Of a stretch of DNA of 20,544 nucleotides, positions 1 through 12,730 are shown one piece after another. Origin of the DNA: Candidatus Korarchaeota archaeon NZ13-K (GTDB lineage: Archaea; Korarchaeota; Korarchaeia; Korarchaeales; Korarchaeaceae); NCBI GenBank assembly GCA_003344655.1, contig MAIU01000017.1, forward strand, positions 1-20,544, given 5' to 3'. Within the stretch, counting starts at the first letter, position 1. Every line of letters starts with the position of its first letter. The position numbers were made by a program, and so were the translations under genes. The notes below the pieces were generated by a model. It was given only the letters and a program-made list of their open reading frames with translations. It was not told the origin of the DNA and did no database searches.

Positions 1-537
1 CTCGATAGGCTGCTCGGGGTCGGAAATCCCGAGGCCCCCCTGTTCGGGAGGGCCTTCTCTGAGATAACTTTGGAGAGGCTCCCTGCCGAGAGGTCCGAGG
101 AGTTCCTAAGGGCCGGGTTCGAGCAGGTGGGCCTCAGGGTCCCTGAGGAGGAGATATCGCAGGCCGTTTCCAGGCTCGATGGTGTGATAGGCTGGCTCAC
201 ATTCTACGGTTACCTCAGGAGCAGAGGAGGGATTGAGGCCCTGGAGAGGGCCGTGGAGGAGGGATCCAGGATCGCTGCCAGCGAGTTCAATCACTTCCTC
301 AGCAACAGGCAGCTGGCCAGGAGGAGGTACGTCGAGGTCCTGAGGACGTTGACCAGGCCCTCCACCTGGACCGAGGTGAAGAGGGGCCTCAGGCTCATAG
401 CCAACGTGAGCGACAAGCAGGTGTCAAGCTACCTGAAGGAGCTGATTCACTATGGTTTCGTGGAGAAGAAAGGTGATCTCTACCAGATAGCCGATCCACT
501 CTTAGCTGAGGCTGTGAGGAGGGGTTATGTTTACTGA
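1..537 (+). CDS. C-terminal part of an archaeal ATPase (Arch_ATPase, PF01637-like) family protein; 5' end lies outside the window
   Basis: Frame 1 is open from base 1 into the listed ORF (70..537), so the gene is 5'-truncated. The 'LDGVIGWLTFYGYL' segment resembles the conserved G(I/V)PGWL(T/N)xFG motif near the C-terminus of Arch_ATPase proteins, followed by a winged-helix-like tail. Recognition is from memory of the family, not a search. Confidence 0.5.
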   Translation, partial: LDRLLGVGNPEAPLFGRAFSEITLERLPAERSEEFLRAGFEQVGLRVPEEEISQAVSRLDGVIGWLTFYGYLRSRGGIEALERAVEEGSRIAASEFNHFLSNRQLARRRYVEVLRTLTRPSTWTEVKRGLRLIANVSDKQVSSYLKELIHYGFVEKKGDLYQIADPLLAEAVRRGYVY

Positions 538-683: not shown

Positions 684-2162
684 TTGAGGGTCATCTTTTT
701 AGATGCGTCCAGCATCGCCTGGGGGATGAGGCTCATAGGCAGGGTGGCGGACGACTCCGGTGAGGTCTCAGCCTCCGTCATACTCCTCAAGGGCCTCGAG
801 AGGGAGGTGACCTCGGAGAGCCTGGTGCTCATAGAGAACGCTGGCTCCGGGAGCAGGGTCTTGGGCATACTGAGGAGGGGGAGGGGGAGGAACGAGTTCC
901 TCAGGAGATCAGGCTATAGGCCGGAGGTGGCCTATCTGAGGCACGGAGGGGAGCCATCGAGCTCAAGGGAGGTCTACTCCTTTGATATCATCGTGCTCGG
1001 GTGCCTTGAGGGAGGAAAGCTGAGGGCCAACAGGATGATAATAGCCCCGGGCTCCCCCGTCTACCTGTTCGATGAGGAGAACCCGCTGGAGCTCATAGCA
1101 GGCTCTGCCAAGAGGTTGGCTTGGATGAGAGCCCACCTGGAGGGGAGGAATGACTGGAGGGTCCCTGCTGATGCCCAGTACATTCCATATCACGTTGGCG
1201 TCTTCGGATCCACGGGGACGGGGAAGTCCTGGTTCACGAGGCACGTGCTCATACCCTTCTACATCGACAACGGCTACAGGGTGATCGTGCTGGACTGGAG
1301 CGGCGAGGACTACGCTCCCTACCTCCCGAGCGTCAGGCTCTCCGAGCTGGCCTTGGACGAGCTCTCGATACTCCAGTACCTCTCGGGGCTCACGGATGAC
1401 TTCGCGGGGAACAACAGCTTGAGGAACGCCTTCGATGATTACGTCTCCGGCTGGGTCGAGAGGGTCAGGGGGAGGGATGAGGTCGAGCTCTACGAGGACC
1501 TGAGGGAGTTCGTTCAGAGGGCGGTCAGGGGGATCAGGAGGGATGACTGGAGGGAGTCGGCGGAGAGGGCCCTCAGCAGGGTCTTCAGGAGGCTCTCCCC
1601 CGGGGACCTGGCCCCCCTGATGGGAACCAGGCCGGTGAGCGAGATCGTTGAGTCCGGGGAGAGGCTGATCGCGGTTGACATGTCCGGCTTCTCCAACGAG
1701 ATCAAGCTAGGCTTCTTCCTGACCCTGGCCAGCGAGCTCAAGAGGAGGATGGTAGCCGGGCAGGATCTCGGGATAGCCCTCGTCATAGACGAGGCCCCCC
1801 AGTACTGCCCTCACAGGCCAGAGGGGATTCAGGCCCAGGTCACCGAGGAGATAAAGAACCTGGCGGCCCTGGGCAGGAAGCACGATCTGAACCTCACGCT
1901 GGTGGCTCAGGGGGTGGCGGGTGAGATAGGGATAAATGCCGCCATAAGGAGGAACCTCAACACGAACTTCTACGGGAGGCTCCATCCCCTCGACGCGGCA
2001 GGTGAGGGGAGCGCCAGGGACTGGCTGGGTCCCTACGGGATAACCCCGGAGTACCTGCTGACCCTCGAGGACGGGAGGTTCTACTTCACGGGCGCCATGA
2101 ACCCCTCGCCGGTCCCCCTTCTCATAACCTTCGAGGTGGAGGGGCTTGGAGGAACGGGATGA
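684..2162 (+). CDS. HerA-like (DUF87/FtsK-HerA superfamily) hexameric ATPase/helicase
   Basis: Walker A 'GVFGSTGTGKS'. Walker B-like 'ALVIDEAPQY' (HerA hhhhDEAH-type). The N-terminal ~130 aa are beta-rich with 'VLGIL...IIVLGCLEG' as in a HAS-barrel. Length 492 aa is typical of HerA. It overlaps the downstream NurA-like gene by 17 nt. Confidence 0.75.
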   Translation: MRVIFLDASSIAWGMRLIGRVADDSGEVSASVILLKGLEREVTSESLVLIENAGSGSRVLGILRRGRGRNEFLRRSGYRPEVAYLRHGGEPSSSREVYSFDIIVLGCLEGGKLRANRMIIAPGSPVYLFDEENPLELIAGSAKRLAWMRAHLEGRNDWRVPADAQYIPYHVGVFGSTGTGKSWFTRHVLIPFYIDNGYRVIVLDWSGEDYAPYLPSVRLSELALDELSILQYLSGLTDDFAGNNSLRNAFDDYVSGWVERVRGRDEVELYEDLREFVQRAVRGIRRDDWRESAERALSRVFRRLSPGDLAPLMGTRPVSEIVESGERLIAVDMSGFSNEIKLGFFLTLASELKRRMVAGQDLGIALVIDEAPQYCPHRPEGIQAQVTEEIKNLAALGRKHDLNLTLVAQGVAGEIGINAAIRRNLNTNFYGRLHPLDAAGEGSARDWLGPYGITPEYLLTLEDGRFYFTGAMNPSPVPLLITFEVEGLGGTG

Positions 2163-3321
2163 GCCGGACTGGGTCAAGCTCCCTCACGCCCTCCAGTCGA
2201 TCTTCTTCGAGAGGGTTGAGGAGGAGGTCTCCTCCCTGATTGGGGAGATAGAGAGGCTTGAGAGATGCATCGAACTCATCAGGGACAGGCTATCCGGTCT
2301 CTTCGAGCCCTACGATGAGAGCGACAGTGTTCTGAGGATAGGGGCCGTTGACGGCTCCAGGTCCCCGGAGATGAGCGAGAGGCTGGGGATAAGGTACGGC
2401 GTCTTCACGACGGGGGCCGTGGTGCTGGAGGGCGGGAGGAGGGTCCGTGAGAGCTATTACGCTGACTCCTTCAGGAGGGAGCAAGCCGCGTCCAGGGAGG
2501 TCAGCAGCTACCTCCTCGATCTCCGCGTGAGCTATGCCGAGAGGAAGCTCGCCCTTGAGTTGCTGGATGATGTGGACTTCCTATTCATAGACGGCAGCTT
2601 CTACGGCTTCGTCTACCCGGTCCTGAGGATGAGGAAGAGGGGGGCGTTCGGGGAGATGGAGGAGTCCCTCTTCAGGGAGATGTGGGAGGTCACTGGGAGA
2701 CTTGTGGAGAGCGGGAAGGTGGCGGGAGTCGTCAAGAGGAGCCACACCAGGGCCATAGGTGGATTCATCGCCACGAAGCTCTTCGATCACCTCCAGGAGC
2801 TCGGGGATCTGGTGGGGGTGATAGACAAGCTCATACTCTCGGCCCTGATGCCCCCGCGCTCTATCTTCAGGTACGAGAGCCTGATAGGAGAGGAGAACGT
2901 CACGGTCTACACGGAGGCGGCCCGCGCCTTCCTCAGGCATGGGAAGTCAGAGGACCTCCTCGAGTTCGCCAGGAAGAAGGCCTATGAGCCTTTCGATAGG
3001 CTGGGGCTCGATCCCGAGGGATTCAGGAGGATGAGGAGGGTTCAGGTCAAGTCCCATCCGGGAGCCCCTGTTTGCGAGATCGAGCACCCCTCCGCGTTCG
3101 AGAGGGTGATCGAGGTGATAAGATCCAGGGGCATGTTCAGCGACGTAACTGGGCTTCCCCTGGCCTTGGACGTCGTGGACTCGCTGGTTGACCTGGGTTC
3201 GAGGTTCACGGAGGAGTACGTGAGCGAGATCGAGGCCAGACTGCTGGAGAGGATGGGAAGGGAAAGACCGAAGCTCATAAGGTGGTTCTTCCATCTCCTA
3301 AACCCTCAGAAGGTCTTCTGA
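2146..3321 (+). CDS. NurA-like 5'-3' nuclease
   Basis: 'RIGAVDGS' (NurA motif I with the catalytic Asp) and a second 'LFIDGSFYG' DGS motif. ~390 aa, translationally coupled to the HerA-like gene. The predicted start overlaps the HerA stop. Confidence 0.7.
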   Translation: MEERDEPDWVKLPHALQSIFFERVEEEVSSLIGEIERLERCIELIRDRLSGLFEPYDESDSVLRIGAVDGSRSPEMSERLGIRYGVFTTGAVVLEGGRRVRESYYADSFRREQAASREVSSYLLDLRVSYAERKLALELLDDVDFLFIDGSFYGFVYPVLRMRKRGAFGEMEESLFREMWEVTGRLVESGKVAGVVKRSHTRAIGGFIATKLFDHLQELGDLVGVIDKLILSALMPPRSIFRYESLIGEENVTVYTEAARAFLRHGKSEDLLEFARKKAYEPFDRLGLDPEGFRRMRRVQVKSHPGAPVCEIEHPSAFERVIEVIRSRGMFSDVTGLPLALDVVDSLVDLGSRFTEEYVSEIEARLLERMGRERPKLIRWFFHLLNPQKVF

Positions 3322-3367
3322 TGAGGAGGGACGGAACGTTTTTCAAATTCCACCCCCTCGAGTCGGG

Positions 3368-4090
3368 ATGCGCGGGAGCGAGTTCTACCCACTTCCCCTC
3401 AGGAACATTCACAGGCTCCTGACGAACCTGGGGCGCGACGCGGATCCGGAGGGCGTGAGGTCCCTGCTCAAGCTCAGGGACAGGAGGAGAGTTGATCAGT
3501 ACGTCAAGACCCTCAGGTGGGTGGCCAGCAGGGTGGAGGACGCTGGCTCCCTGGACGCCTTCATGGAGTCGATGGTCAGGGCTCTGATGAGGGAGTTCTG
3601 GCTGGAGGAGGCCTTCAAGGAGCTGATGGAGAGGGCCATCCCCCTCTCACCTTCCTCCCTCTCCGCCCTGCTGAGGGCGAGGGGGTTGAGCCTGACGGAG
3701 AGCGAGGCCAGGGCGATAATATCATGGATGAGGGAGGCAGGGGCCCTGAGGGAGAGGAAGGTGCCCGTTCTGACCCTATCCCTTGAGGAGAGGGTGCTAG
3801 AGGACGTGAGGAACAGGGGGACAGTCACATACGCGAGCCTCAGGAGGAGCTACGGTGATAACGCCAAGCTGGCGGTATTCTCCCTCTGGAGGAGGGGCCT
3901 TATAAGCGTCCCCTCCCTTGAGAGGTACAGGGACCTGCTGGAGGGGGTGGAGGATCCGGATAGGATACCGGGGAAGGTGGAGGGCAGGATATTCTCCACA
4001 TGGCAGGACAGGACGAGCGGAGAGATGTACAGCGAGCTTGTGATCCCCCAGAGGGAGAGGATATCGGCAAGGTGGCGGCTGGATGCATGA
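3368..4090 (+). CDS. hypothetical protein with two winged-helix-like segments (possible DNA-binding/adaptor component of the cassette)
   Basis: 240-aa ORF with genome-typical codon usage, preceded by GGAGGGA 40 nt upstream. The segments 'LSALLRARGLSLTESEARAIISWMREAGAL' and 'VTYASLRRSYGDNAKLAVFSLWRRGLISV' look like HTH/wH units. Its stop overlaps the next gene's start by 8 nt. No family recognised. Confidence 0.45.
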   Translation: MRGSEFYPLPLRNIHRLLTNLGRDADPEGVRSLLKLRDRRRVDQYVKTLRWVASRVEDAGSLDAFMESMVRALMREFWLEEAFKELMERAIPLSPSSLSALLRARGLSLTESEARAIISWMREAGALRERKVPVLTLSLEERVLEDVRNRGTVTYASLRRSYGDNAKLAVFSLWRRGLISVPSLERYRDLLEGVEDPDRIPGKVEGRIFSTWQDRTSGEMYSELVIPQRERISARWRLDA

Positions 4091-5861
4091 TAGGGATTTG
4101 GAGGGGCTTTACAACAATTACAGGGGCCTGAGACCAACAACTATAAGGTCTATACTCGACTGCTGGGCCGATAGGAGGCCGGTTGAGGAGAGCCTCGAGG
4201 TGATAAGGAGGGTCTTCCCCGGATCCCAGATCCTGGAGTCGACTGCCAGGAGCGTGATGAGGTACCTTCAGGACAGGGATTGGAGGGGTTGCATAGTGAA
4301 CATAATCGGCGACTACGGCTCCGGGAAGACCCAGATGGGGTTCATCCTGCTCAGGATGATAAGGGAGAGGGGGGAGGCACGCGTCAGGATGATCACGGCC
4401 GACCCCCTGACCGAGCTCAGGTCCGAGATCCTAGAGGATGGGGATGAGAGGCCCCTGGTGGTGATAGTGGATGAGGTTGATCTTCTCATCGGCGATATGG
4501 AAAGGGGGAAGCGCGATAGGGTTGAGGAGCTGGCCGATCTGGCAAGGATGATGACGGAGGGGAGCTTCAGTAACCCGGCCAGGGGCTCAGTTATCCTCCT
4601 TCTCTCCAAGAAGGCTCATAGCTCCCTGAAAATGGACAGGGCGCTGAGGAACAGGCTTATCGATAGGGCGAAGGAGTTCTCACTCTCGATGAGTGAGACG
4701 GACAGGGAGAGGGTGAGCCTAGAGGCTGTGAGGAGGATAATAGCCCTCAGGATGGCCTACAGTGAGGAGGATCGCCTGAGGATATTCCGATCCCTCGGGC
4801 TGATATACCCTTTCATGGAGAAGCTGGCCCTCGACCTCTGCTCCATGCATGAGATAGGGGGGATAGTCAAGAACCTGGTCACGGCCCTGGACGACATACT
4901 GAGCGAGCTCACCGACCCGCGGAGCCTTGGTGAGGTTGAGAAGGGGAGGTTCTTCGAGGAGGTGCTCAAGCGCTTCTTCAGCGAGGTATTCAGGAGGGTC
5001 CACTTCAGGGTGACTGTGGGGGATGAGAGGAGGGACTACGTCGCGATCTTCTCGGAGGAGCCCCTGAGCGTCCCCGGAGCCAGAACCGATGCCCATTACG
5101 ACATCAGAACGTACGATGCCGATAGGGGGCTCATCGGAAGCCTCCTGGTGAACCAGGTCGGCTTGGAGATCAAGTACGGGGACTATTGGAAGGAAAACAG
5201 GGATCAGCTCCTGAGGGTGATGGAGAGATACCCCCTGCTCCTGATCTGCGTGACCGAGATGGATGAGGACGAGCTTGCCGATCTGAGGAATCAGATGAGG
5301 GCCGGCGGGAGGGCCTTCGAGATAATGGGCCTGAGCCCCAAGGTCCTGGGGGTGACTCTCACGCTGACGCCGGAGGGGGCTCTGAGGTTCCTGAGGAACT
5401 GGGGAACCTTCGAGAGGGATTTGGAGGAGATCCTGAGCATACTGACGCTGCAGTCGGTGAGGGTAAAGGATAGGGAGGTGAGCGACCAGGATATACTGGC
5501 CCAGGCCTCCTCGGCAATCGTCAGCTCGCTGATGAGGGAGCTCAGGAGGGCCAGGAAGATGGTCAGGACATCGACGCTCTCTGACCTGATCAGGAGGAGC
5601 CTTGAGGGCGTTTACGCCAGGTACGGGAGGGCGGCCCCCGACCTGCCCGAGATCCTCGTGGATAGGATACTCAGGCTTCTGGAGAGGGAGGGCCTGGGGA
5701 GGCTGAGCGAGACCGGTAAGTCCTTCAGCCTGAGCGCGGAATCTAAGAGGAACCTAGAGGAGCTCTCCCTCGATGAGGGAAGGAGGAGGGACATGGAGAG
5801 GGTGGTCTCAGGGATCCTGCTGAGGATGCAGGAGCAGGCCCCCGGACTTGATGCCCTCTGA
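4083..5861 (+). CDS. AAA+/P-loop NTPase with C-terminal putative PD-(D/E)xK nuclease-like region
   Basis: Walker A 'IIGDYGSGKTQ', Walker B 'LVVIVDEVDLL' and sensor-1-like 'VILLLSKK' in the first ~200 aa. The C-terminal region carries 'HYDIRTYDAD-x15-GLEIKYG' (D ... ExK spacing typical of the restriction-endonuclease fold, reminiscent of the DUF234 domain that accompanies Arch_ATPases). 592 aa. Confidence 0.6.
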   Translation: MHDRDLEGLYNNYRGLRPTTIRSILDCWADRRPVEESLEVIRRVFPGSQILESTARSVMRYLQDRDWRGCIVNIIGDYGSGKTQMGFILLRMIRERGEARVRMITADPLTELRSEILEDGDERPLVVIVDEVDLLIGDMERGKRDRVEELADLARMMTEGSFSNPARGSVILLLSKKAHSSLKMDRALRNRLIDRAKEFSLSMSETDRERVSLEAVRRIIALRMAYSEEDRLRIFRSLGLIYPFMEKLALDLCSMHEIGGIVKNLVTALDDILSELTDPRSLGEVEKGRFFEEVLKRFFSEVFRRVHFRVTVGDERRDYVAIFSEEPLSVPGARTDAHYDIRTYDADRGLIGSLLVNQVGLEIKYGDYWKENRDQLLRVMERYPLLLICVTEMDEDELADLRNQMRAGGRAFEIMGLSPKVLGVTLTLTPEGALRFLRNWGTFERDLEEILSILTLQSVRVKDREVSDQDILAQASSAIVSSLMRELRRARKMVRTSTLSDLIRRSLEGVYARYGRAAPDLPEILVDRILRLLEREGLGRLSETGKSFSLSAESKRNLEELSLDEGRRRDMERVVSGILLRMQEQAPGLDAL

Positions 5862-5881
5862 CCGTTTAGCTGGGATCTGGG

Positions 5882-7189
5882 ATGCCGGGCAGAAGGAGCG
5901 TCCTCATCTCCTGCACCCTAGCGTCCTTCCTGACGCCCTTCTCATCCTCCTCCATCACGGTCCTCCTCCCACAGCTATCCTCCCACTTCGGGGTCAGCCT
6001 CGCCGCATCCAACTGGTCGGCCGGGGCCTACCTCATACCCCTTGCCGCATTCATAGTGCCACTCGGGAGGATAGCTGACTGGAAGGGTAGGAGCACCATC
6101 TTCATGATCGGATTGATCTCCTTCTCAGCTTCCTCCCTACTGGCCGCGCTCTCACCTGATTTCACATCCTTCCTCATCTTCAGGTTCCTCCAGGGAATCA
6201 GCTCCTCCATGATCTCGGCCACAGCAGTAGCTGTCCTCTCCGAGGCCTTCCCAAGGGAGGAGAGGGGAAGGGCTGTTGGGGTGAACACCGCCTCTGTCTA
6301 CGTTGGGCTGAGCCTCGGTCCCCTCATGGGGGGCCTGATAGCGGACCTCCTCTCCTGGACTTGGGTCCTCATCCTGAGCTCCCTCGCATCCCTTTTAGCC
6401 CTGCTTCCATCCAGAAATCTCCCGAAGTCCAGGGAATTAAGCTCCCCTCCCAGTCCCGCGCTGATCTCTCTCCACGCCATCTCGATGATCCTCCTGGCGT
6501 ATGGCATCTCCTCCCCGGGTGGGTCCGGTATAGCTATCTCATCCATCGGGGCCGCGCTGCTGGCCGCATGGCTCTCCAGGGAGATGCTCGGGGATGGGAT
6601 CTTGGGTCCTCAGCTCCTCAGGAACGGGGCTTACATGGCATCCTCCACAGCCGCTCTGCTAAACTACAGCGCCACATACGCGATCTCGATAGTGCTCAGC
6701 CTGCACCTCCAGAGGGTGCTTGGCCTACCCGCTAGCGTGGCGGGGATCATTCTGACGGCGCAGCCCATAGTTCAGGCTTTCCTATCACCCCTGGCCGGTT
6801 ACCTCGCTGACAGGATTTCCCCCCACAGGGTGGCCTCGCTCGGGATGATCCTGGTGGCCCTTGGAGTTGTCAGCCTCCTGCCCCTGACGCCATCCAGGCA
6901 GCCAGCGTCACTGCTCCCCTCGCTCCTCTTACTGGGCGTGGGCTTCGCCCTCTTCGCCTCCCCGAACACGGTAGCCGCTTTGAACGCCTCCCCCATCCCT
7001 CTCTACGGTTCAGCCACCGCCTTCCTCGGATCCATGAGGTTCCTGGGCCAGTCCCTGAGCACCTCGATCCTGATGATCCTCATGGCCGGGATGGAGCTCT
7101 CAAGGGCGATGAACGCGGCCCTGATGATCTACGTGGTGATAAGCGCAGCAGGGGCGGTCTTGTCAGCCGTAGCCAGGTACAAAAGGTGA
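5882..7189 (+). CDS. MFS transporter (drug/H+ antiporter-like)
   Basis: Highly hydrophobic protein with ~12 predicted TM segments. MFS motif A-like 'PLGRIADWKGRS' lies between TM2 and TM3. 435 aa. Confidence 0.8.
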   Translation: MPGRRSVLISCTLASFLTPFSSSSITVLLPQLSSHFGVSLAASNWSAGAYLIPLAAFIVPLGRIADWKGRSTIFMIGLISFSASSLLAALSPDFTSFLIFRFLQGISSSMISATAVAVLSEAFPREERGRAVGVNTASVYVGLSLGPLMGGLIADLLSWTWVLILSSLASLLALLPSRNLPKSRELSSPPSPALISLHAISMILLAYGISSPGGSGIAISSIGAALLAAWLSREMLGDGILGPQLLRNGAYMASSTAALLNYSATYAISIVLSLHLQRVLGLPASVAGIILTAQPIVQAFLSPLAGYLADRISPHRVASLGMILVALGVVSLLPLTPSRQPASLLPSLLLLGVGFALFASPNTVAALNASPIPLYGSATAFLGSMRFLGQSLSTSILMILMAGMELSRAMNAALMIYVVISAAGAVLSAVARYKR

Positions 7190-7196
7190 GTCAGTT

Positions 7197-8234
7197 TCAC
7201 TGCTTGAGGAGAGCTATCCCCCCGGGGTTCCTCACCCTGAGGGCCAGCGTCTCCCAGAGCCTGAAGAGGTGCATGCCGTCCTCGGGGCCTATGTAGTCCA
7301 GCTCCGTGTCGGCCCCTATGACTAGATCTAGGACCTGGGGGTTCGATGAGATGAGCAGCGCCTCGTCCTCCTCCAGCGCCGGAACGGCCACCACATCGCC
7401 CACCAGGGCCTTAAGCCTATGCAGCTCCATCACCCCAGTGCGCTCGTGCACCGCAACGAGCTTGGCGTACCTCGAGGGGCTGACCAGGAGCACGTATGGC
7501 TGGGGGAACCCATCCCCAATCATCCCGCTCAGGGCGCCGGCCACCTCGGAAACGGCCGATCCCGGCTCGTCCCATGACGAGATCCTCCCCAACCTCCCTG
7601 CCCTCTCCTTCATCGCCCTGATGAACTCCCTTTCCTCCTCCATCGAGAGCCTCGCGGCAGCCGCGAGGGCGGGGGAGGCGTCGAGGGCGCCGGAGACCTT
7701 GGCGCTGTCCAGAGAGGCCTGGCTTATCGCGAACACCTGGCTCAGCTCCCTCAGCTGGATAACGTACCTCCTCCTGGGCTTGAGGTCCTCGGAGGAGAGA
7801 TCCTCCACGGGCACGGCATCAACTCCCCTTCCGACGCGGGTCACCGGGAGGTGCTTCCTCAGAACCCTGATGCCATCCGCATACCTCCTCACCTCGGCCC
7901 TCAGGTCCGACCACTCCTCCCGCTGGCCGGGAGGATCCTGCCCAGATATTCCCGTGAGCCTAGCGACTTCCTCAGCACCCGATGCGAGTTCCTCAACCTG
8001 CTCCTGATCCAAGGACTTCAGCATAGCCAGGAATTCCCCTACGTGCGTCTTCTCCTCCTTGGCTATGTCCTCGAATACCTTCTTCGCTGCCTGATCCTCC
8101 GTGCAACTGGCCAGCTGCAGGTAGAGGTTTATCGCGTCGAGCTCGGCTATTATGCTCAGGCGGAGCGCCTGGGCCAGCTCCTCCCTGCTTAGCTTCCTCC
8201 CAACGGGGAGCTCAATGGGGTTCTTGCTGAGCAT
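7197..8234 (-). CDS. ferritin-like protein / encapsulin (linocin M18-type) shell protein fusion
   Basis: The N-terminal ~100 aa have ferritin-like di-iron signatures ('IIAELDAINLY', 'EEKTHVGEF', ExxH). The remaining ~245 aa have encapsulin-like length and composition. The total of 345 aa matches the known Flp-encapsulin fusions of Thermococcales virus-like particles (recalled from memory). Confidence 0.55.
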   Translation of the reverse strand: MLSKNPIELPVGRKLSREELAQALRLSIIAELDAINLYLQLASCTEDQAAKKVFEDIAKEEKTHVGEFLAMLKSLDQEQVEELASGAEEVARLTGISGQDPPGQREEWSDLRAEVRRYADGIRVLRKHLPVTRVGRGVDAVPVEDLSSEDLKPRRRYVIQLRELSQVFAISQASLDSAKVSGALDASPALAAAARLSMEEEREFIRAMKERAGRLGRISSWDEPGSAVSEVAGALSGMIGDGFPQPYVLLVSPSRYAKLVAVHERTGVMELHRLKALVGDVVAVPALEEDEALLISSNPQVLDLVIGADTELDYIGPEDGMHLFRLWETLALRVRNPGGIALLKQ

Positions 8235-8250
8235 GAGTCAAGCTGATGGG

Positions 8251-8264
8251 AAATAATATAAATC
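8251..8264 (-). promoter_or_regulatory. TATA box (minus-strand reading TTTATATTATTT) ~23 nt upstream of the encapsulin ATG; leaderless promoter
   Basis: An AT-rich 14-mer in GC-rich context, centred ~23-26 nt upstream of the start codon at 8234. Confidence 0.45.
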
Positions 8265-8309
8265 TTCGGCCGTGACCCGATGACATCAATGGATGCTCAC
8301 GATCGCGGG

Positions 8310-8840
8310 CTACTCCGCCCCATCCCTCCCGGGCCTCACCAGCCTCTCCTCCCTGTCATACTCGATGAGACCGGAGCAGACTCCCCAGTAAATGAGGCAG
8401 TTGAAGGCCTCCTCAAGATCTCCCTGGTGACAGAATCCTCCACTTGAAGCTATTATTCTCATAACCTCCTCCTTCCTGAGGCCTCCCCTCTCCTTCAGCC
8501 TCCTCATCACCTCGCTGAAGACCTCCAGATGCATCAGCTTGCTCCTGATGTAACTACCCCTCTCCGAATGACTCAGCCCCAGGAAATCGATTCCAGATTC
8601 GGTTAGCTTGGCATCACCCTCATCCACCGAGATCAGACCAATCATCTCCAGGAACTCCAGAAGTGGGAGTATCTCATCAGCATGCATGCCCGTCTCCTCG
8701 GATATCCTCGCCACATCAGCCTCCCCGCCCAGATCCCTGAGGAGCCTCAGGAGGCCCAGCACCCTGGAGTAGGACACGGGTAACTCCGACATGGGTCCTT
8801 CACTGAAGGCCCCTCCCAAAAAATAAACTTTGTCCTCCAA
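8310..8840 (-). CDS. small protein resembling the C-terminal AAA-associated domain of NitT/TauT ABC ATPases (stand-alone); alternative start at 8792
   Basis: Immediately follows the ABC ATPase gene on the same strand, 2 nt after its stop. 160-176 aa with wH-like 'LGLLRLLRDLGGEADVARISEETGMHADEILPLLEFLEMIGLI'. Family assignment is tentative. Confidence 0.45.
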   Translation of the reverse strand: MEDKVYFLGGAFSEGPMSELPVSYSRVLGLLRLLRDLGGEADVARISEETGMHADEILPLLEFLEMIGLISVDEGDAKLTESGIDFLGLSHSERGSYIRSKLMHLEVFSEVMRRLKERGGLRKEEVMRIIASSGGFCHQGDLEEAFNCLIYWGVCSGLIEYDREERLVRPGRDGAE

Positions 8841-8842
8841 AC

Positions 8843-9580
8843 TCAGGAGAGGAGACTGTATATCTCATCAACCTTCTCGTAGATGCCCTCATCCCTCCTG
8901 TTCCTGGGCCTCGGTAGGTCTATGTTCACGACCCTCAGAACCACGGAGGGTCTTCTGGATAGGACGACAACCCTATCGGACATTAAAACGGCCTCCTCTA
9001 TGTTGTGCGTCACGAGAATTATGGACTTCAGGCTCGGGGAGCTCTTCCAGAGCTCCAGTATCTCGTGCCTCAGGGTCTCGGCCGTGAGCTCGTCAAGGGA
9101 GGAGAAGGGCTCGTCCATCAGGAGGAGGCTCGGTTCAACGGCCAGGGCCCTGGCTATCCCGACTCTCTGTCTCATCCCACCGGATAGCTCCTTTGGGAGG
9201 AACTCCTCGAACTCCGAGAGTCCGACGAGGCTTAGCCACTTCCTAGCTATCTCCCTCGAGTTCCTCACTCCCCTGGCTCTCAATGGGAGCTCCACCTGCT
9301 CCAACACCTTGAGCCAAGGCACTAAGGCGAAGCTCTGGAAGATCATGGATATCCTTGGATCAGGGGAATCTATCTCCCTCCCATAGAAGGTTATCCTCCC
9401 GGAGCTGGGCCTCTCAATGCCCGCTATCATCCTCAGGATGGTCGATTTCCCGCAGCCACTCGGTCCCACGATAGAGACTAACTCCCCCTCCCTCAGCGAG
9501 AAGCTCACCTCCCTTATAACCTCCAGCTCCTCTCCATCCGAGGGGAAGCGCTTTGAGACCCTATCCAGCTCCAGCATCAT
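8843..9580 (-). CDS. ABC transporter ATP-binding protein, nitrate/sulfonate/taurine (NitT/TauT) family
   Basis: Walker A 'GPSGCGKST', ABC signature 'LSGGMRQRVGIARAL', Walker B 'LLLMDEPFSSLD', H-loop 'ILVTHN'. ATGA overlap with the upstream permease. Confidence 0.85.
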   Translation of the reverse strand: MMLELDRVSKRFPSDGEELEVIREVSFSLREGELVSIVGPSGCGKSTILRMIAGIERPSSGRITFYGREIDSPDPRISMIFQSFALVPWLKVLEQVELPLRARGVRNSREIARKWLSLVGLSEFEEFLPKELSGGMRQRVGIARALAVEPSLLLMDEPFSSLDELTAETLRHEILELWKSSPSLKSIILVTHNIEEAVLMSDRVVVLSRRPSVVLRVVNIDLPRPRNRRDEGIYEKVDEIYSLLS

Positions 9581-11118
9581 TCCACCCTGAATTTGGTCGA
9601 GTAATCGTACAGGAACCTCCAGAGGGTCCTGTTAATGACTATTATGATCGCGGTCAGGACGGCCGTTACGAATATGACTGACGATACGCTTCCCCTCTCC
9701 CACGCAGCGATGCTGAGGAGGGTCCCCAGGCCGTACTGAGATTCATCTCTCGGGAAGACCTCATCCCCCACCTTTATATATTCTGCGACTATGAGGGCAT
9801 TCCAAGCGCCGCCCCAAGCCGTTATCAGACCCGTCACGATCGAGGGGAACATGCCCGGGAGCACGATCTTCCTGAGGTAGAGGAATCCCCTCACTAGGAA
9901 GATCCTCCTCATCTCCTCTAGATCTGACGGTATCGACCTCAAACCGGCGAGGGAGTTGAACATTACGTAGAACTGAGCCCCGAAGAGGGCTAGCATGATA
10001 GCGGCAATCTCAAAACCGATCCCACCCATGGGAAGCACTATGTACCTCACCAGGAAGGGCCAGAGAACGGGAACGGGGAAGGATGCCGCTATCTCGAGAA
10101 CCAACATGAGCTCGTTCCAATGCTTCCCCCTGCCTAACAGGAGGGAGACTGGAAGGGTCCATGTGAGGGAGATCAGGAGCACCGTAAGGACCCTCCTCAT
10201 CGAGTTCAGGGATGCAATCAGGATGAGACCCGGCTCGCTAACGTACTCGGATGAGAGCGACTCCGGTGTCACCGAGAGCGCCGTCCTCACCACCGCGTAA
10301 ACTGTGAATGCCATCAGGAGGAGAGCGGAGATCTTTCCCAGAATTCTGGCCCTTCTCTCAACGAGATTTCCTAATTTCATCAGATGATCCCTCAACCGAA
10401 GCCTTGAGATGCGCCTGATGGTGCGGAAGAAAGCCCTGTGGATGAAGTGGGGGATCCTCACCCAGTGCAGCTCGAGGGGCCTCACCCTCCTCCTCTCCCC
10501 GGCCGAGTACTCGTACTTGAAGTTCTCGCTCCACTCGACGAGGGGCCTCCATATGAAGAGGTACGTGAAGGAGACGAGGAACATCGTCACCAGCACGGAT
10601 ATGACTGCGAGATCAATCCTTGGAGGGGTTTCCATCAGTGACAGGGCGAGAAGGCTCCCCAGGCCCGGGAGCGATATCTCGGCGCTGCCCACCGATATCA
10701 CCTCGGACGCGTAGAGGAAGAACCAGCCTCCAGCCCAGGACATGGCCGAGTTGTAGATCAGCTTCTCCATGGTGGCCGGTATAAGTATCCTTCTGATGTA
10801 AAGAGTCCCCCTGATGCCGTAGATGCGCGTCATCTCCTCCAGATCCCTTGGTATCATCTTCACGGCTTCGTAAACGCCGAAGGTCATGTTCCACACTTGA
10901 GAGGTGAATATGAGGAAGATAGAGGAGATCTCCGCCCCTATGCGCGAGCCGAAGAGGTTCATGAAGAAGATTATGACGACTGGGAAGAAGCCCAGTATTG
11001 GCACGCTCTGCAGCACGTCCAAGACCGGTATCACCAGGTGCTCAGCCTTCTCATTTTTCCCAGCGATGATCCCCACGGAGAGGGAGAATATGAGGGATAA
11101 GATGTACGCGAGGATCAT
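9577..11118 (-). CDS. ABC transporter permease, fused duplicated BPD-transport (TauC/SsuC-like) domains
   Basis: 513 aa with two ~250-aa hydrophobic halves, each with an EAA-like loop region ('SIPSDLEEMRRIFLVRG', 'PRDLEEMTRIYGIRG'). Confidence 0.8.
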   Translation of the reverse strand: MILAYILSLIFSLSVGIIAGKNEKAEHLVIPVLDVLQSVPILGFFPVVIIFFMNLFGSRIGAEISSIFLIFTSQVWNMTFGVYEAVKMIPRDLEEMTRIYGIRGTLYIRRILIPATMEKLIYNSAMSWAGGWFFLYASEVISVGSAEISLPGLGSLLALSLMETPPRIDLAVISVLVTMFLVSFTYLFIWRPLVEWSENFKYEYSAGERRRVRPLELHWVRIPHFIHRAFFRTIRRISRLRLRDHLMKLGNLVERRARILGKISALLLMAFTVYAVVRTALSVTPESLSSEYVSEPGLILIASLNSMRRVLTVLLISLTWTLPVSLLLGRGKHWNELMLVLEIAASFPVPVLWPFLVRYIVLPMGGIGFEIAAIMLALFGAQFYVMFNSLAGLRSIPSDLEEMRRIFLVRGFLYLRKIVLPGMFPSIVTGLITAWGGAWNALIVAEYIKVGDEVFPRDESQYGLGTLLSIAAWERGSVSSVIFVTAVLTAIIIVINRTLWRFLYDYSTKFRVE

Positions 11119-11219: not shown

Positions 11220-11927
11220 CTATCTCATCATCGCCCTCATGTATAGGAGCATGCCGATCGCGCTGATCACGGCGGAGAGGAGGGGAAGGGAGATGAGCTG
11301 ATCCGTCGTCGGCATTGTCCCCTCCCCGAAGGAGGCCCTGAGCAGGTCCGCGACTATGGAGACCGGATTGTAGTGGGAGATCACCCTCACCGCTAAGAAC
11401 TGATCTAATGCCCTCCTTGGATAGAAAACCGTGCTGAAGAAGAAGAGCACGAAGTAGAGGAGGCTCCTCACCGTAGCCTGGACATCCATCTGCTTGGATA
11501 TCGATGAGAGCGCTATTCCAAGGCTTGACATCGAGAAGGCGAGTAGGACCAGCGATAGAACCGCAACCGCGAATGTCTCAACATCAGGAAACCCCTCCAT
11601 AGCTACGAGGAGAATGAGGAATGGAATCGCATAGACAAGCCCCCTTATCGTCCCTCCCACGGCCCTCCCGAGCAGTAGCTCGCGCCTCCTCATGGGAAGG
11701 GAGAGGAGGTAGTGATGGACGTCCCTCCTTATCTCCATCATCACCTCCCTCCCTATGGAGAATGAGGAGGCGAATATAGCTATCGCAGTTATCCCGGGGG
11801 CGACGAACCTTATGTAGTCCGGTATGAGCGCCCTGTTCACGATACCATTGAAAACCGCTGCCATTATGAAAAGATCGCTGAGGTTCATAGCCACCAGGCC
11901 GGCGAGCCACCATCTGTACTTCCACAT
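11220..11927 (-). CDS. ABC-2 type transporter permease (second permease; start uncertain, ATG 11927 or GTG 11975)
   Basis: The listed 411-aa ORF overlaps the upstream permease. The hydrophobic 6-TM ABC-2-like part begins at 'MWKYRWWLAGLV'. It is paralogous in architecture to the permease at 11966..12730. Confidence 0.6.
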   Translation of the reverse strand: MWKYRWWLAGLVAMNLSDLFIMAAVFNGIVNRALIPDYIRFVAPGITAIAIFASSFSIGREVMMEIRRDVHHYLLSLPMRRRELLLGRAVGGTIRGLVYAIPFLILLVAMEGFPDVETFAVAVLSLVLLAFSMSSLGIALSSISKQMDVQATVRSLLYFVLFFFSTVFYPRRALDQFLAVRVISHYNPVSIVADLLRASFGEGTMPTTDQLISLPLLSAVISAIGMLLYMRAMMR

Positions 11928-11965
11928 CCTTTTGAGGTCCCTCAGCGCCACCTCGAGTACCTGAC

Positions 11966-12730
11966 TCACCTCCACCCCCCTCCTTCCACCTTCCTCTCGA
12001 AAAGGAGAATGCCCACCATGAATGCCGATATCGAAAACCCTAAGAGGAAAGCCATAGCTGAGCCAGGAGACTCGAATTGGGTGTATGAGAAGACCTCCGG
12101 GCACATCAAATATCTGAGGAACTCGGCAAGCTGGGTTATGGGGTTCAACATGGATGGGAGCCTGTAATAGGGGGGCATGATTGAGAGAGGGTACATAGCG
12201 GTGCTGAGCCTGACCAGGATCGCGTCCACGGCCCCGAAAATTATATCGGAAACATCGCTCGACTTCACGAAGGAAACGAATGTTATAACTATGCCGGATA
12301 TCCCGATCGCGAAGAGGAGCGATGAGAAGAGGGAGAGCATCATGGAAAAGGAGTTCAGGTTTTTGAGCAGGAGGAGAACCAGAAGGAGCATTGGAAGCGT
12401 GTATGTGAGGGAGGAAACGGCACACCCAACGGATCTGCCCATCACGAATTCCCACCTTCCCATGGGCAGGGATAAGAAGTACTCGAAGAGACCGTCCTCA
12501 GCCTCTTCCAGTATCTCGTAGCTCATGTAGACGGAAAGGGTGAAGAGTATCGAGCTGTAGACCCCAACCAGGTAGAACTCGTAGAACCTGGGTATCAGGA
12601 CTATCCTCGACATCATGACACCGAATACAGTCACCTGAACGGCGAACCAGGTGAACCTCATCGCTATGAAGAACTTGTACCTCCTAGTCTTGGAGAGCTC
12701 CCTCCTCACCAGGAAGATCGCACCCCTCAT
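11966..12730 (-). CDS. ABC-2 type transporter permease
   Basis: 254-aa, 6-TM hydrophobic protein with an N-terminal 'RRELSKTRRYKFF' cytoplasmic segment typical of ABC-2 permeases. ATGA overlap with the ATPase gene. Confidence 0.65.
   Translation of the reverse strand: MRGAIFLVRRELSKTRRYKFFIAMRFTWFAVQVTVFGVMMSRIVLIPRFYEFYLVGVYSSILFTLSVYMSYEILEEAEDGLFEYFLSLPMGRWEFVMGRSVGCAVSSLTYTLPMLLLVLLLLKNLNSFSMMLSLFSSLLFAIGISGIVITFVSFVKSSDVSDIIFGAVDAILVRLSTAMYPLSIMPPYYRLPSMLNPITQLAEFLRYLMCPEVFSYTQFESPGSAMAFLLGFSISAFMVGILLFERKVEGGGWR

Follow-up and report, generated by a model that had tools for sequence, protein, structure and literature searches.

A rare archaeal ORC/Cdc6-like AAA+ ATPase with a predicted PD-(D/E)xK domain and a dedicated partner protein: a candidate ATP-controlled DNA-cutting module

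A contig of Candidatus Korarchaeota archaeon NZ13-K (GenBank: MAIU01000017.1, positions 1 to 20,544; hereinafter the window, i.e., the entire 20,544-nucleotide stretch analyzed) carries two overlapping genes, of which the second codes for a 592-residue protein predicted to combine an ORC/Cdc6-like AAA+ ATPase module, a restriction-endonuclease-like PD-(D/E)xK domain and a C-terminal winged helix, whereas the first codes for a dedicated partner protein of 240 residues (Table 1). Having weighed residue conservation, structure prediction and gene pairing against several competing explanations, we lean towards the pair being an ATP-controlled DNA-cutting two-gene module with an intact active site, the most likely function of which would be defense. 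The original prediction, made from the sequence of the window by itself, had proposed that an AAA+ ATPase and a PD-(D/E)xK fold are joined in one protein: this fusion is supported by the structural model and by conservation, but the details given for the catalytic aspartate, the class of the ATPase and the gene context had to be revised.

The strongest evidence for the predicted nuclease domain is the conservation of its residues. In an alignment of 25 non-degenerate sequences sharing 12–22% identity, from which the degenerate members P0041 and P0053 (proteins and loci are designated by P and L numbers) had been removed, no column of the domain other than those of E292, D336 and E362 is invariant, and that of G288 is nearly so. 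In the structural model, E292, D336 and the E362-x-K364 motif are each placed on the canonical PD-(D/E)xK element, namely helix α-1, the start of a strand and the next strand, respectively. A separate model of residues 278–462 (predicted local distance difference test score [pLDDT] 88.5) displays the order helix, four antiparallel strands, helix, strand, helix, strand; the α-β-β-β-α-β core of the restriction-endonuclease fold, which had been anticipated around the motif of the original prediction, is present at that region of the predicted domain, and homologues down to 15% identity keep the acidic and lysine set on the expected elements. The figures listed with the domain model are 8.5 for BsaWI, 7.9 for AgeI, 7.8 for VC1899, 7.4 for the RAP domain, 7.2 for Can2, and 6.9 each for McrC and Bax1. 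The D…ExK motif alone is not above chance, with shuffles of the window protein yielding D-x14-16-ExK in 28% of the cases and the looser D-x10-30-[DE]xK in 91%; hence, the finding of a nuclease domain rests on conservation and structure prediction. All the strings first quoted are indeed present in the protein (GDYGSGKT, residues 76–83; VVIVDEVD, 126–133; LLLSKK, 172–177; HYDIRTYDAD, 338–347; LEIKYGD, 361–367). The catalytic aspartate, however, has to be sought elsewhere than in the 'YDAD' segment, and the proposed 'D-x15-EIK' spacing is slightly off: there is no aspartate exactly 15 residues before E362 (D345 gives x16 and D347 gives x14). Conservation of D345 is limited to close relatives, and neither D340 nor D347 shows any. 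The predicted catalytic residue is instead D336, within 'TDAH', with the spacing D-x25-ExK.

The lysine of the ExK motif follows a different pattern from the acidic residues, being retained in the korarchaeal clade and a few other members and replaced by threonine in 12 distant ones. All the latter E-x-T members (12/12) carry a lysine at the position aligned with N372, eight residues downstream of K364 on the following helix, which is absent from most ExK members. Relocation of the catalytic lysine is known in active PD-(D/E)xK families; because every sequence without K364 in the E-x-T group has a lysine in the N372 column instead, this covariation argues for selection on catalysis by the predicted nuclease. 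Conversely, the full-length but degenerate P0041 and P0053 have both lost E292, E362 and the Walker B glutamate, with D336 being lost in P0041 only, and are presumably inactive copies. Since the Walker B glutamate and the nuclease residues have disappeared together in these two proteins, their pattern suggests that the ATPase and nuclease activities are functionally linked. We regard the domain as probably catalytically competent.

The AlphaFold2 model of the full-length protein, computed from a 12-sequence alignment (pLDDT 85.7; predicted template modeling score 0.70), begins with a helical region (residues 1–64), which is followed by a five-stranded α-β-α P-loop domain with a helical lid (~65–275), an α/β domain (~280–420), a helical linker, an H-β-H-H-β-β segment (~468–550) and two long helices. 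The α-β-α base and helical lid can be superposed on ORC/Cdc6, and the matches of the AAA+ model to ORC/Cdc6 structures are stronger than that to TnsC; judged by this model, the ATPase is an AAA+ protein of the ORC/Cdc6 initiator type. In an alignment of 27 sequences (15–48% identity to the window protein, P0041 and P0053 included), the near-invariant positions are the start methionine, W28, G79, G81, K82, Q84, D130, E131, D133, G288, E292, D336 and E362. The predicted sensor-1 residue, S175, is assigned from its position in the model and from motif order, and its column holds serine, threonine or asparagine in 24 of the 27 homologues and proline in three. After the sensor-1 strand comes the stretch 'D-R-A-L-x-N-R-L-x-D-R...F-S-L-S', which we take to fit the box VII pattern of ORC/Cdc6, and by the motif order of ORC/Cdc6 proteins R191 would be the arginine finger. 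A RecA/RadA-type ATPase, which the Walker A sequence 'GEYGSGKTQ' and matches to RadA structures had brought to mind, was ruled out by the fold and strand order, which are those of the AAA+/ORC class. A subgroup of larger members (P0057, P0063 and P0064; ~630–690 residues) has ~45 additional residues inserted behind the second strand of the AAA+ base, and its sensor-1 position is proline; it retains the E, D and ExK of the nuclease domain. At the C-terminus, sequence searches gave only faint matches, such as MCM_C (E 0.045) and SelB-wing (all E ≥ 0.045), and it is the topology of the AlphaFold2 model that points to a winged helix there. As a predicted architecture, the succession of an ORC/Cdc6-type AAA+ module, a PD-(D/E)xK domain and a C-terminal winged helix can be held with high confidence.

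The gene translates without internal stops into a product identical (100%) to a 'hypothetical protein' of Ca. Korarchaeota archaeon NZ13-K, and no family model from Pfam, NCBIfam, PADLOC or PHROGs matches the 592-residue protein above cutoff. This includes the curated Cdc6/ORC models of Pfam and NCBIfam, the best hits in these libraries being weak generic AAA_22/AAA matches. A scan of 12 relatives similarly returned weak generic P-loop matches (AAA_22, AAA, AAA_16, nSTAND, KAP, BrxC_BrxD and TniB), while sequence and profile searches against PDB chains recovered only Walker A matches (RadA and designed P-loops) or spurious designed-repeat proteins. Using a word-indexed search, we retrieved 19 relatives, all of those with a source name being from Korarchaeota. 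When 1.8 billion representatives were searched exhaustively with a profile, 49 members were detected at E ≤ 1e-3, of which ~35 are full-length (555–690 residues), and the aligned relatives from this search share 15–21% of their residues with the window protein. By scanning genomes with one distant clade, we located members in Ca. Wolframiiraptor, a Thermofilaceae metagenome-assembled genome (MAG) and a Promethearchaeati (Asgard) MAG (three GTDB species), and narrower locus searches yielded three genome loci and four metagenome loci. The ATPase family is rare, archaeal and unannotated, with a patchy distribution across hot-spring Thermoproteota, Korarchaeia and one Asgard MAG. On a Ca. Wolframiiraptor contig (L012, 4794–5870), the tblastn match covers residues 1–360 of the query, yet the open reading frame (ORF) ends after 287 residues, which may reflect a frameshift, a pseudogene or an assembly error.

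Directly upstream of the ATPase gene, and overlapping or abutting it, each of the complete loci examined has a gene for a homologue of the partner (231–247 residues). This pairing is seen in Korarchaeia, Thermofilaceae, Wolframiiraptor and one Asgard MAG, and it holds even in the loci at 18–22% identity, including those with ATPases that are only ~19–21% identical to the window protein; the partner's own homologue search recovered only stand-alone proteins of ~235–240 residues. The partner gene is the one that the original prediction had taken to be Arch_ATPase-like; its product has no P-loop and no match in Pfam, NCBIfam, PHROG or PADLOC. The only similarities are weak ones to HTH_IclR, MarR_2 and BlaI-like models. 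Judged by its sequence pattern, it probably consists of two or three helix-turn-helix (HTH) or winged HTH (wHTH) modules and a small β-rich C-terminus. Further, five korarchaeal loci (the window, L005, L001, L004 and L010) have the sequence AAC(G/T)TTTTTCA in front of the partner ATG, with the spacing between the two being the same in each. It is a candidate archaeal B recognition element (BRE)/TATA promoter and would be consistent with the pair having its own promoter and a leaderless or short-leader transcript. The partner and ATPase genes constitute a conserved, autonomous two-gene module.

As a mechanism for this module, we propose that ATP binding would drive the AAA+ modules to oligomerize on DNA (compare ORC/Cdc6, TnsC, MuB and STAND proteins), with the winged helix and the small partner holding the DNA or discriminating targets. 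The assembly would then position or license the nuclease domains, which are predicted to lie between the AAA+ lid and the winged helix with E292, D336 and E362-x-K364 intact, for DNA cutting; the protein would thus act as the 'ATP-regulated nuclease effector' that had been envisaged at the outset. The most likely role for such an activity, although we put it forward tentatively, would be the restriction of foreign DNA, i.e., defense, with DNA repair or maintenance being the main alternative. A bolder and rather doubtful version holds that the pair is a previously unrecognized, self-contained archaeal anti-virus or anti-plasmid system, in which the initiator ATPase itself bears the active nuclease, the fast-evolving multi-wHTH partner selects the DNA and ATP-driven assembly triggers cleavage.

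Several observations weigh against a DNA-cutting defense module. First, a Foldseek search of the domain model against the PDB returned nothing at E ≤ 1e-3 (the best nuclease, EcoT38I, was at E 0.03), because of which the model-based fold evidence for the PD-(D/E)xK assignment is moderate rather than overwhelming; both structural models were built on shallow alignments of 10–12 sequences, and neither sequence nor profile searches connected the domain with a curated PD-(D/E)xK family. Second, the sole match of the ATPase among the known defense systems of PADLOC-DB v2 is to SspC (E 7e-4; residues 51–106, the Walker A region), and no relatives of the ATPase family were found in IMG/VR, PLSDB or INPHARED. 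Third, PIN toxin-antitoxin genes, which occur near some copies of the pair, are very common in thermophilic archaea, so that a 'defense island' context is only suggestive. Fourth, in Korarchaeum-like genomes the pair sits in a syntenic position by genes for an MFS protein, encapsulin, an SDR protein, GcvP and NAD kinase; a comparison of the window with L001 gives identities of 48% for the ATPase, 60% for the partner, 56% for the MFS protein and 66% for the encapsulin, a divergence comparable to that of the neighbors, by which the inheritance of the pair within Korarchaeia looks vertical rather than mobile. Finally, in the closest published kind of protein, the equivalent domain is described as inactive. 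These proteins, with an Orc/CDC6 AAA+ module and a restriction endonuclease (REase) domain inserted before a C-terminal wHTH, belong to the 'HerA/FtsK capture' and related predicted counter-invader neighborhoods, in which the inserted REase is described as inactive without exception, the active REase being the product of a separate gene (Krishnan et al., NAR 2024, PMC10853773, section 22).

The last of these points leads to an alternative in which the inserted REase fold is a sensor, or a ligand- or DNA-binding module ('iREase'), that regulates the ORC/Cdc6-like switch, with cleavage being left to another protein, be it NurA or a nuclease encoded elsewhere. A role as nucleotide sensors has been proposed for inactive REases that are paired with NTPases, and both the lack of conservation of K364 across the wider family and the Foldseek result would agree with this. 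We nevertheless consider it unlikely: E292, D336 and E362 remain invariant in 25 highly divergent sequences, the loss of K364 is offset by a nearby lysine in 12 of 12 cases, as is typical of active PD-(D/E)xK enzymes, and the pair has no consistent linkage to a further nuclease gene. The comparison with the 'HerA/FtsK capture' proteins is itself one of described domain order and not of sequence. The resemblance lies in the order ORC/Cdc6 AAA+, REase fold and (here predicted) wHTH, in the HerA-family ATPase linked to the pair in the window and in a plausible wHTH partner; the occurrence of this domain order in predicted counter-invader systems is a point in favor of the main explanation. Unlike those proteins, the window family keeps the catalytic residues in its insert; moreover, its cassette in the window contains no separate REase gene, the neighbor being NurA, and its HerA linkage is facultative (2 of ~12 loci) and with NurA rather than an REase.

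The HerA-NurA genes also bear on a second alternative, under which the pair is a chromosomal repair or replication factor of Korarchaeia and Thermoproteota, for example, a structure-specific endonuclease of ORC-like type that would cooperate with HerA-NurA in end resection. HerA-NurA is directly adjacent to the pair in the window and in L005, the stable synteny and housekeeping-like divergence in Korarchaeia are what such a factor would display, its AAA+ fold would be of the appropriate ORC/Cdc6-like kind, and the absence of the family from the viral and plasmid collections searched points the same way. Against this, the family is very rare, with 49 representatives among 1.8 billion proteins, its distribution is patchy, with the single clade used for scanning genomes giving three GTDB species, and degenerate copies of it exist. 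The HerA-NurA adjacency, too, is confined to two closely related loci, being absent from the other ~10 of ~12 contexts; in L005, a nucleotidyltransferase (NTase)/HEPN pair sits between HerA-NurA and the partner gene. In the window, the stop and start of the HerA and NurA genes overlap, HerA weakly matches the anti-phage HerA, mad8 and CedD models, and no Mre11/Rad50 was found near them; they may be a non-canonical, perhaps defense-type, paralogue pair. HerA-NurA as an obligatory component was rejected, given its adjacency in only 2 of ~12 loci and the promoter-like element directly upstream of the pair in the five korarchaeal loci. Beyond Korarchaeum, the surroundings of the pair vary and abound in toxin-antitoxin, cas and restriction-modification genes, which is again at odds with a chromosomal repair or replication factor. 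Counting in favor of our main explanation, the neighborhoods of the pair repeatedly include PIN/RHH/MazE toxin-antitoxin genes, an MmeI-like methyltransferase/restriction gene, HEPN/NTase genes, an AAA_15 ATPase, the type I cas genes DevR and Cas5d, genes for a Cas10-like HD protein and Csm2, PDDEXK_9/10, a DUF234 gene, a Panacea-domain gene and, in L006, a DDE transposase. All told, we judge the repair or replication explanation improbable. That the two genes belong to a mobile element, as a component or as what is left of one, with a Tn7-like TnsC (AAA+) fused to TnsA (PD-(D/E)xK with a C-terminal winged helix), is very unlikely: weak TniB and 'DNA transposition protein' matches and the DDE transposase beside the pair in L006 speak for it, but no transposase or integrase is consistently linked, the window contains no tRNA, the position in Korarchaeia is syntenic and the ORC/Cdc6 matches outrank that to TnsC.

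The candidate DNA-cutting module can further be compared with other known systems. Like the ATPase_2-DUF234 and AAA_14-DUF4143 proteins, which are abundant in thermophilic archaea and have a suspected defense role, the window protein is an archaeal AAA+ ATPase fused to predicted HTH and PD-(D/E)xK-type domains; however, it differs from them in domain order, in its ~600-residue size and in the obligatory 240-residue partner. The original prediction had sought a kinship precisely here, with DUF234 and Arch_ATPase. No match to the Pfam models ATPase_2, DUF234, AAA_14 or DUF4143 was found in the window protein or its relatives, including PF03008 (DUF234) in 12 full-length members and 25 domain sequences at lenient thresholds and PF13173/PF13635 of the AAA_14-DUF4143 proteins (COG1373). 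Profile comparisons with hhalign, of the nuclease-domain profile with DUF234, AAA_14 and PDDEXK_10 proteins and of the full-length profile with Arch_ATPase, gave nothing significant (probabilities ≤ 1.4%; 0.3% for the DUF234 protein of L014 and 0.1% for the AAA_14 protein of L008), and we therefore reject the DUF234/Arch_ATPase relationship. What was sensed is probably the truncated Arch_ATPase gene at the left edge of the window, three genes from the ATPase, whose full 355-residue homologue lies in L005 (1197–2264). The SspABCD phosphorothioate system offers a likeness in that SspC is a Cdc6/Orc-clade AAA+ ATPase working with SspB, a multi-wHTH DNA-binding protein; in contrast to the window protein, SspC lacks a nuclease insert, its match is limited to residues 51–106, and the SspA and SspD genes are absent. 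McrBC differs in that McrB is a GTPase of another AAA+ clade and its nuclease is in a separate subunit, and STAND/Avs effectors in their C-terminal TPR sensors and N-terminal effectors; neither shows sequence similarity to the window protein.

Table 1. Features of the two-gene module and adjacent genes in the window (nucleotide positions in the window; residues of the 592-residue protein)
Feature	Position	Strand	Basis
ORC/Cdc6-like AAA+ / PD-(D/E)xK / predicted-wHTH protein gene, 592 residues	4083..5861	+	ORF translation, homologue search, AlphaFold2
Predicted AAA+ ATPase module, residues ~65–275, α-β-α base and helical lid	4275..4907	+	Model
Walker A GDYGSGKT, residues 76–83 (K82)	4308..4331	+	K82, Q84 invariant; G79, G81 nearly (27 sequences)
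Walker B VVIVDEVD, residues 126–133 (D130, E131)	4458..4481	+	D130, D133 invariant; E131 in 25/27
Predicted sensor-1 strand LLLSKK, residues 172–177 (S175)	4596..4613	+	End of predicted strand 168–175
RNRLIDR, candidate box VII/arginine-finger segment (R191)	4647..4667	+	R191 kept in 22/27
Predicted PD-(D/E)xK (restriction-endonuclease-like) domain, residues ~280–420	4920..5342	+	Model
E292, conserved Glu on helix α-1 (G288-x3-E292)	4956..4958	+	Invariant in 25; predicted helix 284–301
D336, predicted catalytic Asp, start of strand 337–345	5088..5090	+	Invariant in 25 non-degenerate sequences
E362-I-K364, ExK motif on strand 350–365	5166..5174	+	E362 invariant in 25
Q375, conserved Gln, helix after ExK strand	5205..5207	+	Q 21/27, K 5, E 1
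Predicted winged-helix domain, residues ~468–550, including LEREGLGRLSETGKSFSL	5484..5732	+	AlphaFold2 topology H-β-H-H-β-β
Partner gene, 240 residues, family-less	3368..4090	+	Stop overlaps ATPase start by 8 nt
Promoter-like element TTTTTCAAATT, AACG before it	3339..3349	+	~19–29 nt upstream of partner ATG
Divergent HerA (684–2162) and NurA (2146–3321), facultative neighbors	684..3321	+	Pfam DUF87 3e-12, NurA 3e-8
Arch_ATPase (PF01637-type), C-terminal half, MCM_C-like winged helix, cut by left edge of window	1–537	+	

Some further observations concern the surrounding genes. The encapsulin (Linocin_M18; 345 residues; window 7197–8234, minus strand), which is 66% identical to the L001 copy, has an N-terminally fused rubrerythrin/ferritin-like domain and resembles the fused architecture of the Pyrococcus furiosus type. 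An ABC transporter operon (8310–11118, minus strand) codes for a fused or duplicated BPD_transp_1 permease (513 residues), an ABC ATPase (245 residues) and a separate 176-residue protein with AAA_assoc_C and an HTH-like region. Two ABC-2 membrane ORFs (11220–12455 and 11966–12730, minus strand) overlap by ~490 nt in different frames, likely on account of an over-extended start of the downstream ORF (GTG at 12455) and not as a true overlap. On the Asgard MAG contig (L014), a convergent 1551-residue ORF without a Pfam match (3905–8560, minus strand) lies directly downstream of the pair.

The combination of an AAA+ switch with a restriction-endonuclease fold is a familiar design, but the family itself is rare and new to the curated libraries searched, and it is set apart from the nearest relatives on record by what appears to be an active nuclease insert and by a dedicated partner. 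AAA+ and STAND ATPases with restriction-endonuclease folds are widespread in prokaryotic immunity; those of archaea have been little mapped, and hardly any of them has been put to the test. The pair would offer a compact, thermostable two-protein system for studying the control of a nuclease by an ORC/Cdc6-type switch, for which the natural ExK and ExT-plus-lysine variants and the doubly degenerate copies are ready-made controls. If the nuclease is active, the 'inactive REase insert' of related architectures would not be universal; and, should the pair prove to be a self-contained defense system, it would stand beside the Orc/CDC6-iREase proteins, so far described with inactive inserts only, as their counterpart with an active nuclease.

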